A stretch of 47,991 bases of DNA. Origin: an uncultured Halobacteriales archaeon (GTDB lineage: Archaea > Halobacteriota > Halobacteria > Halobacteriales > Haloarculaceae). The notes beneath the pieces are model-generated. The model saw only the letters and a list, made by a program, of their open reading frames with translations, was not told where the DNA came from and made no database searches. The stretch spans positions 1 through 47,991 of the forward strand of contig CAYWNQ010000001.1 of the NCBI GenBank assembly GCA_964459695.1. The letters are read 5' to 3'. Below are positions 9,954 to 41,085 of this stretch, piece by piece (position 1 is the stretch's first letter; every line of letters starts with the position of its first letter). The translations under genes were made by a program, and so were the position numbers.

Positions 9954-11015
9954 ATGCCATCGGGATTGCCGGATTCCACCCGAACGCTACTGGTCGTCGT
10001 GACGGTCGCGGTCGTGGTCTCGATGGTCGCTGGCGTGGCCAGCGCGGCCCCGGACGAGACGGGTGCAGTCGCCTCCCCCGACGGGACGCTCCCCGACGAG
10101 GGGGCTCTCCCGCCCATGGACGTCCCGTTCGGACCCGTCGCCGGCGCCGGAACCGGATCGGAGGCCGGCGACGCGGGGCCAGGGTCACCCGTCGAGGCCG
10201 GCCAGACGGGGTGGGCACCACCGGTCGGGCCGGATCGGACGACGGCGGCGTCACCCGAACCGCAGCCACCGGTCCAGCAGCTACCGACCGGCCGAGTGAC
10301 CCTCGACGTTCCCCGGACGGAGGCCGTCGACCACGGGACCCCGTGGCTCTCCGGGACGAACGACGGGGGTCGGCTGGCCGGCCACGCAGGCGACGGCCGG
10401 CCGGGACCGCGCGCGCTGGCGTGGTTCCTCACCGGTCTCACCGCGCTGCTCGCGGACGCCGCGGGCGTCATCGGCACTGTCGCGGCGGTCGCGGAGGCGG
10501 CCGTGACGACGGTTCCGGTCGTCGCCGGGCTCCTGGATGCGGCCATCGGAGTCGCCGGCATCCTGTCGGGACTGCTCGTGCACGCGCTGTATCGCGACCT
10601 CGCGGCGAGTCCGAGTGGACTGACCGCGGCCGTCCGACAGCTCCCGTTCGCGGACCTGGACGCCGGTCGCCGACTGGGAGCGTGGGCCTGGTGGCTGCCC
10701 GGCGGTGCCAGGGCCGCGGCATCTCGCGGGGAGGACGAGCCGGGGGCAACGAACGGGCCCGACGTCGACAAGGGGAGCGACGAACTCGTGCCCGACAGCC
10801 TCGTCGTTCAGCGGATACTGGAGTCGAACGAGGGCCGCCTGAAGCAGGGCGCCATCGTCGAAGCGACGGGGTGGTCCAAGTCGAAGGTCAGCCGGCGCCT
10901 GTCCCGGATGGCAGACGACGGCCGTATCGTGAAGGTCAGACTCGGGCGCGAGAACCTCATCTGTCTGGACGGGGCCGAGCCGGACGTCGTCTCGGGAGGA
11001 CCGACACCGGCGTGA
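9954..11015 (+). CDS. membrane-tethered winged-helix (MarR/ArsR-like) transcriptional regulator
   Basis: The N-terminal TM/signal anchor is TLLVVVTVAVVVSMVAGVASA. A ~130-aa Pro/Gly-rich segment and two further hydrophobic helices follow. The C-terminal wHTH reads VVQRILESNEGRLKQGAIVEATGWSKSKVSRRLSRMADDGRIVKVRLGRENLICL. Confidence 0.75.
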   Translation: MPSGLPDSTRTLLVVVTVAVVVSMVAGVASAAPDETGAVASPDGTLPDEGALPPMDVPFGPVAGAGTGSEAGDAGPGSPVEAGQTGWAPPVGPDRTTAASPEPQPPVQQLPTGRVTLDVPRTEAVDHGTPWLSGTNDGGRLAGHAGDGRPGPRALAWFLTGLTALLADAAGVIGTVAAVAEAAVTTVPVVAGLLDAAIGVAGILSGLLVHALYRDLAASPSGLTAAVRQLPFADLDAGRRLGAWAWWLPGGARAAASRGEDEPGATNGPDVDKGSDELVPDSLVVQRILESNEGRLKQGAIVEATGWSKSKVSRRLSRMADDGRIVKVRLGRENLICLDGAEPDVVSGGPTPA

Positions 11016-37348: not shown

Positions 37349-37422
37349 GGGCCGATAGCTCAGTCAGGGAGAGCGACGGCCTCTTAAGCCGTCGGTCGAG
37401 GGTTCAAATCCCTCTCGGCCCG
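37349..37422 (+). tRNA. tRNA-Lys (anticodon CUU)
   Basis: Hand-folded cloverleaf. The acceptor is GGGCCGA/TCGGCCC, the D arm GCTC-AGTCAGGGA-GAGC, the anticodon arm ACGGC-CTCTTAA-GCCGT (CTT at 37383-37385) and the T arm GAGGG-TTCAAAT-CCCTC. The discriminator is G and no CCA is encoded. Confidence 0.95.
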
Positions 37423-37545
37423 CTCCTGCGACGAACGGACGTGAGGAGCGGAGCGGCCGGGGATTTGAACGAGAGGAGACGCAGCCCGCGCAGCGTAGCG
37501 AGCAGGAACGTCTCCGCGTAGTTCAAATCCCGGTAGGCTCAGTTC
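37423..37545. repeat. tRNA-trailing palindromic element A with T-loop-mimicking arms
   Basis: The small hairpin is cgctcc/ggagcg (37421-26 / 37445-50). The long hairpin arms are ccggggatttgaac (37457-70) and gttcaaatcccgg (37521-33). The inner 7-bp stem is ggagacg/cgtctcc (37475-81 / 37509-15). The core gcgcagcgtagcgagca is shared with element B. Confidence 0.6.
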
Positions 37546-40781: not shown

Positions 40782-40960
40782 GGGGCTGTGGCCAAGCCAG
40801 GAATGGCGACTGACTCCAGAGGTCACGCGCCCGGTGACGAGACTCCAGACTGATATACCGAGCGGCCGGCTGATCACCGCGCCGTGATGACGACCCTCTG
40901 GAGACCCGAGGCGCATCCGGAGATATCAGTCGATCGGGGGTTCAAATCCCTCCGGCCCCA
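40782..40960 (+). tRNA. tRNA-Trp (anticodon CCA) with a 105-nt intron at the canonical 37/38 position
   Basis: The acceptor is GGGGCTG/CGGCCCC, the D arm GCC-AAGCCAGGAAT-GGC and the anticodon stem ACTGA..TCAGT with loop CTCCAGA (CCA at 40816-18). The T arm is GGGGG-TTCAAAT-CCCTC and the discriminator is A. Exon 1 spans 40782-40819 and exon 2 spans 40925-40960. Confidence 0.93.
40820..40924 (+). ncRNA. box C/D guide RNA embedded in the tRNA-Trp intron (targets C34 and U39 of its own pre-tRNA)
   Basis: The C box is gtgacga at 40834-40 and the D' box ccga at 40858-61. The C' box is gtgatga at 40884-90 and the D box ccga at 40906-09. Guide 40895-40903 pairs over 9 bp with 40814-22, so that C34 (40816) faces the 5th nt upstream of D. 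Guide 40848-56 pairs over 9 bp with 40923-31, so that U39 (40926) faces the 5th nt upstream of D'. Confidence 0.8.
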
Positions 40961-41085
40961 TGCGTTCTGCTGCGAGCGAACGCGAGCAGCGAACGCCGTC
41001 GTCGGAGGGATTCGAACCGGGGAGGTCGCGCACAGCGCAGCGAGCACGTCCGGCCGTGGTTCAAATCCCTCCAGTTACTCGGTCC
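40961..41085. repeat. tRNA-trailing palindromic element B (homolog of element A)
   Basis: The arms are ggagggattcgaacc (41004-18) and ggttcaaatccctcc (41058-72): 14 bp with 1 mismatch. The right arm is identical over 15 nt to the T arm of the adjacent tRNA-Trp. The core is cagcgcagcgagca. Confidence 0.6.

Follow-up and report, generated by a model that had tools for sequence, protein, structure and literature searches.

A tRNA-linked family of hairpin repeats carrying copies of the neighbouring tRNA 3' end in Halobacteriales

Two related hairpin-forming units, copy A behind tRNA-Lys(CTT) and copy B behind tRNA-Trp(CCA), were analysed in a stretch of 47,991 nt (hereafter the window; contig CAYWNQ010000001.1, assembly GCA_964459695.1) from an uncultured Haloarculaceae archaeon. 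Both belong to a family of gene-less repeats that lie directly behind tRNA genes throughout the Halobacteriales. Each unit contains a core hairpin flanked by a partial inverted copy (arm 1) and a direct copy (arm 2) of the neighbouring tRNA's 3' end. The likeness and the number of the copies are far beyond chance. Probably, though by no means surely, the units represent a small non-autonomous element directed at tRNA 3' ends and the archaeal equivalent of the tRNA-linked repeats (TLRs) of Escherichia coli.

Repeats of a tRNA tail have been known in E. coli since 1978, and the haloarchaeal family is a much better system for finding their maker. Hundreds of copies are present across an order of cultivable and genetically tractable archaea, the conserved folded core can be used as bait for its binding protein, and the pattern of gain and loss is clear at one and the same tRNA gene. 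An effect on 3' processing of pre-tRNA is likely, since about half of the tRNA transcription units are occupied. The units also supply extra copies of the tRNA 3'-terminal segment that serves as the integration core of proviruses and islands, and they can mislead the annotation of tRNAs, introns and genomic islands.

Distribution and link to tRNA genes

The host genome of the window is incomplete (2.3 Mb, 332 contigs, 72% G+C, an estimated 81.5% complete), and the window is its contig C1. The DNA 3' of every tRNA gene in this genome was read, and the same layout was found behind at least a dozen others. Ten full copies were aligned to build a covariance model, which was used for the searches. 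The model detected 13 copies in the host genome, was positive in 28 of 31 relatives with 10-50 copies per genome, and was positive in 20 of 21 sampled Halobacteriales genomes. No match was obtained in about 130 genomes from other orders of the phylum. The few Halobacteriales genomes that lack units are G001, G021, G025 and G163. A scan of species-representative genomes with an exact pattern gave at least 119 loci, distributed over some 25 named genera; the matches listed include Haloarcula, Halorubrum, Halosimplex, Natronomonas, Halorhabdus, Halobellus and Halobiforma, and three bacterial matches are probably due to chance. The preliminary description of copies A and B, which held that the absence of further copies in the genome or in relatives would leave only a local duplication, is thus answered by hundreds of copies.

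In three complete genomes, 21 of 42, 19 of 43 and 26 of 47 tRNA genes (45-55%) are occupied. An occupied gene carries 1-4 units, on the strand of the tRNA and directly after the discriminator. Within these genomes, 99 of 116 model matches chain to a same-strand tRNA 3' end; the others are weak echoes on the opposite strand or units displaced to the far end of islands with an integrase. Units that seem to lack a tRNA mostly sit behind intron-containing tRNAs. Altogether, 187 distinct units were collected behind tRNAs of 28 anticodons and 16 amino acids. Units are 59-200 nt long (median 123) and contain neither a gene nor an integrase gene or its remnant. The integrases seen near units belong to separate islands, and integrase-bearing islands that are inserted in the tRNA and adjoin units were found at loci L005, L016, L076, L089 and L131.

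A consensus-like unit gave no BLAST match in a phage collection and one weak match, to a Natrinema megaplasmid, in a plasmid collection. The exact pattern had no match in IMG/VR. A looser core pattern returned 120 viral matches, which are attributed to chance because arms and stem are absent from all of them. The units match no Rfam 15 family, either at the gathering threshold or at E<=1.

Anatomy of the units and the copies in the window

Read in the orientation of the tRNA, a unit consists of an optional small hairpin (h1), a variable linker, arm 1, the core hairpin and arm 2. Arm 2 repeats about 22 nt of its neighbouring tRNA in direct orientation; the copied stretch starts with the two G that precede the T-loop and runs to the discriminator. 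All 13 nt past the T-loop are exact in 94 of 149 units (null 0.1%), and the T-loop itself is identical to that of the tRNA in 111 of 131 units; 85% of units have an exact T-stem part and 73% an exact acceptor part. The per-position profile shows that arm 2 tracks the tRNA from the T-loop to the discriminator and not in the 5' strand of the T-stem.

Arm 1 is the inverted T-loop with part of the T-stem 3' strand, and it fades outward. It mirrors the A/G variant at T-loop position 4 (counts 88, 6, 2 and 33; Fisher p = 3e-22) as well as the rare loops TTCAATT and TTCGAAC. It also follows the T-stem 3' strand (p = 2e-13), with positions 3-5 at 0.44-0.65 compared with 0.25-0.45 by chance. The acceptor part gives no signal (2.42 vs 2.36 of 8), and arm 1 was rejected as a full inverted copy of the tRNA tail. 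Rare copies in which arm 1 reaches the acceptor part include those on contig C138 of the host genome and at locus L004. The two arms form a helix of 11 bp that is 93% Watson-Crick paired; in the anchored helix, G·T oppositions exceed A·C oppositions by 53:23. A three-unit array behind tRNA-Ser(CGA) of genome G010 (L185:1454-1950) lacks the small hairpin and has only a 7-nt T-rich linker, TTTTGTC, between each tail copy and arm 1. Its first unit has the standard core and units 2 and 3 have another short core; arm 1, GAGATTTGA, mirrors the unusual T-stem CTCCC of this tRNA.

The small hairpin has a covarying stem and a GA-rich loop of the GAACGNACGTGA type. The inner stem of the core has the form xxxAG-T-CG / CG-T-CTxxx with 47 compensated variants, and its T·T opposition is retained in 106 of 129 units. 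In a 127-row alignment, which was fitted to the covariance model and therefore leans toward structure, 95.1% of the cells are paired, compared with 77.6% in shuffles, and double-sided changes number 284 against 80. The covariation score is 0.39, compared with 0.03-0.06 for slid controls. The folding and covariation analyses proposed earlier thus had a positive outcome: h1 and the inner stem covary. The apex has the motif GCGNAGC in the sense strand of 57% of cores and in the antisense strand of 2%, and its density is 13 per kb compared with 0.5 per kb genome-wide. GCGNAGC is reportedly the consensus of unusually stable DNA mini-hairpins described by Hirao, Yoshizawa and co-workers. The small hairpin folds more stably in the sense strand, and the minimum-free-energy fold of the long hairpin has more G·U pairs in the antisense strand.

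The following features were located in the window, all on the forward strand:

37349..37422, + strand, tRNA-Lys(CTT), host gene of copy A (ARAGORN; Rfam RF00005, 71.6 bits)
37423..37452, + strand, copy A, small hairpin h1, stem cgctcc 37421-26 / ggagcg 37445-50 with a loop of the GAACGGACGTGA type
37457..37470, + strand, copy A, arm 1, ccggggatttgaac (= ccggggATTTGAAc), T-loop and start of the T-stem 3' strand, inverted
37475..37515, + strand, copy A, core hairpin, inner stem ggagacg 37475-81 / cgtctcc 37509-15, apex gcgcagcgtagcgagca 37488-504
37521..37543, + strand, copy A, arm 2, worn direct copy of a tRNA 3' end, gttcaaatcccggtaggctca, with the outer-arm part gttcaaatcccgg at 37521-33
40782..40960, + strand, tRNA-Trp(CCA) with a 105-nt intron, host gene of copy B (Rfam RF00005, 43.9 bits; ARAGORN with introns allowed)
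40962..40996, + strand, copy B, small hairpin h1, gcgttc-t-gctgc gagcgaacgcga gcagc gaacgc
41004..41018, + strand, copy B, arm 1, ggagggattcgaacc (= ggagggATTCGAAcc), 14 of 15 positions paired with arm 2
41019..41057, + strand, copy B, core hairpin, apex gcacagcgcagcgagca 41030-46
41058..41079, + strand, copy B, arm 2, in which ggttcaaatccctcc (41058-72) reproduces the T-loop and T-stem 3' strand of tRNA-Trp in direct orientation; repeat family D17

The hairpins, arms, inner stem and shared core were re-read in the sequence and lie where the preliminary description had placed them. Its homologous element 3.5 kb away, behind tRNA-Trp, has the same anatomy as copy A, and the two are 71% identical over 110 aligned columns. 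Both begin one base past the discriminator of their tRNA. They have the core gcgcagcgNagcgagca in common (37488-504 in A, 41030-46 in B), for which at least two matches occurred in 2 of 100 shuffles, and the fold of each is more stable than those of its dinucleotide shuffles (A, z = -2.5; B, z = -3.6). The apex gcgcagcgtagcgagca of copy A contains two overlapping GCGNAGC motifs. The h1 of copy A recurs as an identical 29 nt behind tRNA-Glu(TTC) on contig C81 of the same genome.

Arm 2 of copy A agrees with tRNA-Lys at 8 of 13 positions past the T-loop. Arm 2 of copy B, with a decayed acceptor part (agttact) after ggttcaaatccctcc, likewise agrees with tRNA-Trp at 8 of 13. Copies A and B are old, decayed members of the family, in which the T-loop helix has been retained and the rest of arm 2 is worn. 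The arms had been described as the T-loop sequence and its complement. This is correct as anatomy, but the arms are not generic: across the family they copy their own neighbouring tRNA, and those of A and B look generic because both copies have decayed.

The units had been judged not to be tRNA genes, which agrees with the programs: ARAGORN and the Rfam model RF00005 call true tRNAs only and are silent at the units, even at E<=1, and neither a cloverleaf nor a minihelix of acceptor and T-arm was detected. Among the functions offered earlier, a tRNA-like processing signal is without structural support, as the T-loop letters sit in a helix and the acceptor copy is unpaired. A terminator fares no better, since a run of at least four T within 12 nt past arm 2 was found in only 14 of 131 units (11%). 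A small repeat aimed at tRNA 3' flanks, similar to MITEs (miniature inverted-repeat transposable elements), fits best of the four options, which also included a decoy for T-loop-binding factors. Several other structures were considered and rejected. A K-turn or K-loop in the GA-rich loops was discarded by eye because the required 3-nt bulge followed by GA is missing, and a bulge-helix-bulge intron between the two T-loops because the splice-site regions are unpaired, again by eye. Flipping of the core between the inverted arms was also rejected: what looked like reverse matches proved to be the same units read on their other strand, and model matches keep the orientation of the tRNA.

Two observations concern tRNA calls in the window. 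The tRNA-Trp intron (40820-40925) has GTGATGA and CTGA boxes inside its 105 nt, which is consistent with the box C/D guide RNA known for haloarchaeal tRNA-Trp introns. At 10443-10533, ARAGORN calls a 91-nt tRNA-Ala(GGC) that is not called by the Rfam tRNA model and whose 3' end has no T-loop; it is probably a false positive.

Turnover and origin of the units

In about eight genera no unit lies at the 3' site of tRNA-Lys(CTT); other genera have 1-3 units there. Genome G005 has a tRNA-Lys(CTT) 100% identical to that of the window (L032) without a unit; TACTACTTTTTT follows directly, and similar DNA lies further downstream. Within one genus, an empty locus (L207) and a filled one (L199) differ by exactly one unit of 122 nt, which ends in the tRNA tail, and their flanks are 88% identical over 334 columns. 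At the same tRNA site, L195 has one unit more and L187 has a stub only.

When units from different genomes are compared, a shared anticodon does not make them more alike: identity is 0.64 for h1 and 0.65 for the core at the same anticodon, and 0.63 and 0.64 at different ones. An orthology signal is thus absent. Neighbouring units of one array have a median identity of 0.69, compared with 0.65 for random pairs, and reach at least 90% in 1 of 26 adjacent pairs. The arrays are not recent tandem duplications. A rare recent tandem amplification was observed at G153:C1:63203-63567, where three tandem units with equal model scores have a period of about 122 nt.

In 104 pairs, cores that are at least 88% (up to 98%) identical lie at different isoacceptors, often in different genera; many loci were collected with a pattern that fixes part of the core, and core similarity is therefore biased upward. 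Where the tRNAs of these pairs differ, arm 2 follows its own tRNA by 477:4, and arm 1 follows its own tRNA in 285 cases, the other in 71 and neither in 132. The h1 hairpins of the listed pairs are just 40-67% identical. The arms thus follow the host tRNA in near-identical cores, and therefore the core is conserved, the arms belong to the site and h1 assorts separately.

In the favoured reading of a non-autonomous element, each addition would place a single unit at the 3' terminus of a tRNA gene that is intact, and insertion would duplicate about 22 nt of the target; because of this duplication the tRNA would stay whole. An unlinked enzyme acting in trans would recognise a folded single strand of sense polarity, the recognised fold comprising the base helix made by the arms, the T·T opposition and the GCGNAGC apex. 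Such recognition, by a protein encoded elsewhere, is indicated by the covariation of the stems, by the mismatch that is conserved and by the strand specificity of the apex. Units would be lost again through recombination between the direct repeats, and the element is probably carried in the pre-tRNA trailer. Arm 1 could have arisen by three routes: it may be copied from the target at insertion, it may be corrected or compensated later for pairing in the arm helix, or the target may be chosen by pairing. If the arms are indeed written from the target or used to find it, this would be a new way of addressing DNA to a site.

Several points weigh against this reading. Neither an enzyme nor an autonomous parent was identified, and no search aimed at a parent insertion sequence (IS) was made. 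Gain within a single lineage was not seen, and secondary deletion between the direct repeats of 22 nt could account for every empty site. Cores that are 94-98% identical across genera could equally mean a host function under purifying selection, and in the statistics of arms and core each related genome counts as a case of its own. The fold of the long hairpin is as stable on one strand as on the other. No standard transposition or integrase mechanism yields a direct copy together with a partial inverted copy of the target.

A possible but rather unlikely alternative is that the units serve the host as a module of the pre-tRNA 3' trailer, for instance as a small RNA or as an element for processing or stability. 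The module would be co-transcribed with the tRNA and spread among tRNA loci by ectopic recombination or gene conversion with shared T-loops as anchors, and selection would hold the hairpins and the tail copy. The compensatory changes and the very high conservation of the core across genera would suit such a role, as would the fixed orientation relative to the tRNA, the sense-strand specificity of the motifs and the greater stability of h1 in the sense strand. Arm 2 is exact in 65% of first units and in 67% of later ones, which resembles maintenance; the same figures do not bear out the idea that the unit nearest the tRNA is the youngest. Precedents exist in the stable 3' trailer of about 60 nt of Haloferax tRNA-His (PMC3495736) and in the E. 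coli tRNA-linked repeats RrA/B/F, which are functional small RNAs (PMC8144298); retention by selection has also been proposed for the repeat at the end of RrB. Nevertheless, about half of the tRNA genes manage without a unit, and the same tRNA is filled or empty between genera and within one genus. Units of the same anticodon bear no sign of orthology, the 1-4 units of a gene are dissimilar within an array, and the arms of both window copies have decayed. The core hairpin is found away from tRNAs too, and a tRNA-like fold for tRNase Z or RNase P is lacking.

An improbable, more far-reaching proposal is an insertion element without a protein gene that is addressed by nucleic acid. Its folded sense strand (DNA or RNA) would select the site by pairing through arm 1 with the T-loop and T-stem of the tRNA gene, both arms would be rewritten from the target during insertion, and the reaction would be the work of a host enzyme that reads the conserved core with its T·T opposition and GCGNAGC apex. 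If true, it would be an archaeal, unlinked analogue of guide-directed recombination.

It is very improbable that the units are scars of tyrosine-integrase elements (SNJ2-type proviruses or islands), with arm 2 as a leftover attR and the hairpins as remnants of attP arms after deletion of an island. Direct repeats of a tRNA tail are a hallmark of such integration, the core used by haloarchaeal integrases is 14 bp long and lies at the tRNA 3' end (PMC5861418), and integrase-bearing islands adjoin units at the five loci named above. What defeats this explanation is that a single core family is found with 28 anticodons and that none of the units carries a gene. The core is 94-98% identical behind these anticodons, whereas integrases and their att sites are tRNA-specific (PMC5861418), and all units, at about 120 nt, have the same precise architecture. 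The duplicated block of about 22 nt, which includes the T-loop, exceeds the 13-14-nt core of the islands; at island loci the units lie outside the islands and are displaced by them. The viral and plasmid searches, with nothing in the phage collection or IMG/VR and a single weak plasmid match, also argue against it. That A and B arose by local duplication or form a palindrome by chance, for which only their 3.5-kb spacing speaks, has practically no likelihood and is refuted by the 13 copies here, the positive result in 28 of 31 relatives and the hundreds of copies behind tRNA genes of the whole order.

Some loci with islands or variant insertions were observed in addition. In Halosimplex amylolyticum (L089:3266-7800), a partial tRNA tail and a unit come after an integrase gene; next are about 3 kb of cargo with AMP-binding-like and metallo-beta-lactamase genes, and then a second partial tail with a near-identical unit. 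This layout is consistent with islands inserted into different tail copies of a two-unit array. In many species of genus g23 (L186-L215), the 3' flank of tRNA-Lys(CTT) is an integration hot spot alongside hairpin units, and at least two island families, beginning CTCCGTTAATAAA… and CTTCTTCACCGAACGATTCCGAGTCG…, start directly past this tRNA. In the host genome of the window, behind tRNA-Leu(CAA) at C164:3380-3830 (- strand), a 75-nt direct repeat, composed of 28 nt of the tRNA 3' end and 47 nt of downstream DNA, surrounds an insert of about 180 nt that has the core hairpin and lacks arm 1. This element is a variant with a much longer duplicated segment.

Likeness to known elements and related hairpins

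[quoted passage not shown] The E. coli TLRs (Egan & Landy 1978; Stenum et al. 2021) comprise 22 units at ten loci with 1-5 units per locus. [quoted passage not shown] Like them, the haloarchaeal units are gene-less, lie directly behind a tRNA gene in the same orientation, occur 1-4 at a time and end in a copy of the upstream gene's final 18-22 nt. Unlike the TLRs, the haloarchaeal family is order-wide and has an inverted T-loop arm and a conserved covarying core, and about half of the tRNA genes carry it. The TLRs are the nearest described kind, to which the haloarchaeal family adds the inverted T-loop arm, the conserved core, the order-wide spread and the half-occupancy. The kinship appears to be one of kind and not of descent, with the family seemingly confined to Halobacteriales.

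SNJ2-type integrating elements (PMC5861418) also target the tRNA 3' end and leave direct repeats of its tail around the insert, and the arm 2 copies contain the 13-14-nt segment that SNJ2-type islands use as core. The units differ in having no integrase or other gene, one core family for 28 anticodons, a longer repeat that includes the T-loop, and a partial inverted copy.

With MITEs and with repetitive extragenic palindromic (REP) repeats and bacterial interspersed mosaic elements (BIMEs), such as Correia elements, the units have in common that they are short, non-coding, hairpin-forming, high-copy and intergenic, with inverted ends of 11 bp. As in MITEs, a target-site duplication flanks the insert, although its length of about 22 nt is unusual for a transposase. 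As in REP/BIME repeats, the core hairpin and its loop motif recur in other intergenic hairpin clusters. Unlike those of MITEs, the terminal inverted repeats copy the individual target and not the element, and the specificity for tRNA 3' ends is near-absolute. A related IS or a gene like those of REP-associated tyrosine transposases (RAYTs) was not identified, in work that included no search for a parent IS.

The integron attC site is likewise an imperfect palindrome bounded by an inverse-core/core motif (…GAAC / GTTC…) with conserved unpaired positions, and the arrays of units look as if built by successive insertions beside one fixed site. This is a resemblance only, as the units have no cassette gene and a core motif other than GTTRRRY. 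The t-elements of Haloferax, which are tRNA-like and cut by RNase P and tRNase Z (cited in PMC4946936), are haloarchaeal, tRNA-related and non-coding like the units. The t-elements have a tRNA fold; the units differ from them in having no such fold and no tRNA call by ARAGORN or Rfam.

Other hairpin repeats were observed in the same genomes. A second structured repeat family of about 150 nt in the host genome of the window, GGGACTGAAAGGGGC…long stem…AGCACTGCAGCGAACGNAGTGAGCGAAGCGCGCAGCGAG…GGGGCTTTCCGGCGGTG, has at least seven copies that are not tRNA-linked (C33:~9850, C36:~4082, C47:~100, C50:~68, C55:~523, C56:~4623 and C90:~1081). It has the loop motif in common with the tRNA-linked units. 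The 18-nt motif AGCGAACGNAGTGAGCGA occurs at 17 sites of this genome (e.g., C25:193, C98:5587 and C122:6439), 14 of them away from tRNA genes, and forms the loop of many perfect GC-rich hairpins such as GGTGGCGCG…GCGCCACC. Alone, it can be folded as GC, tandem G·A, AC-GU and a GNA triloop. This motif may represent a protein-binding or structural module that is common to intergenic repeats in haloarchaea.

The core hairpin GAAGTCGCAGCCCGCGCAGCGAGCGAAGCGAGCGAGCAGGACCGTCTTCC was also found without T-loop arms within GC-rich hairpin clusters of about 450 nt (L180:1517-1579, L181:1555-1611, L182:1533-1588, L183:1552-1607 and L184:1566-1613). The clusters have no Rfam match at E<=0.01 and may be an uncatalogued non-coding RNA or a BIME-like cluster. 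Those at L180 and L181 have a TATA-like box, TTATAAAT, upstream.
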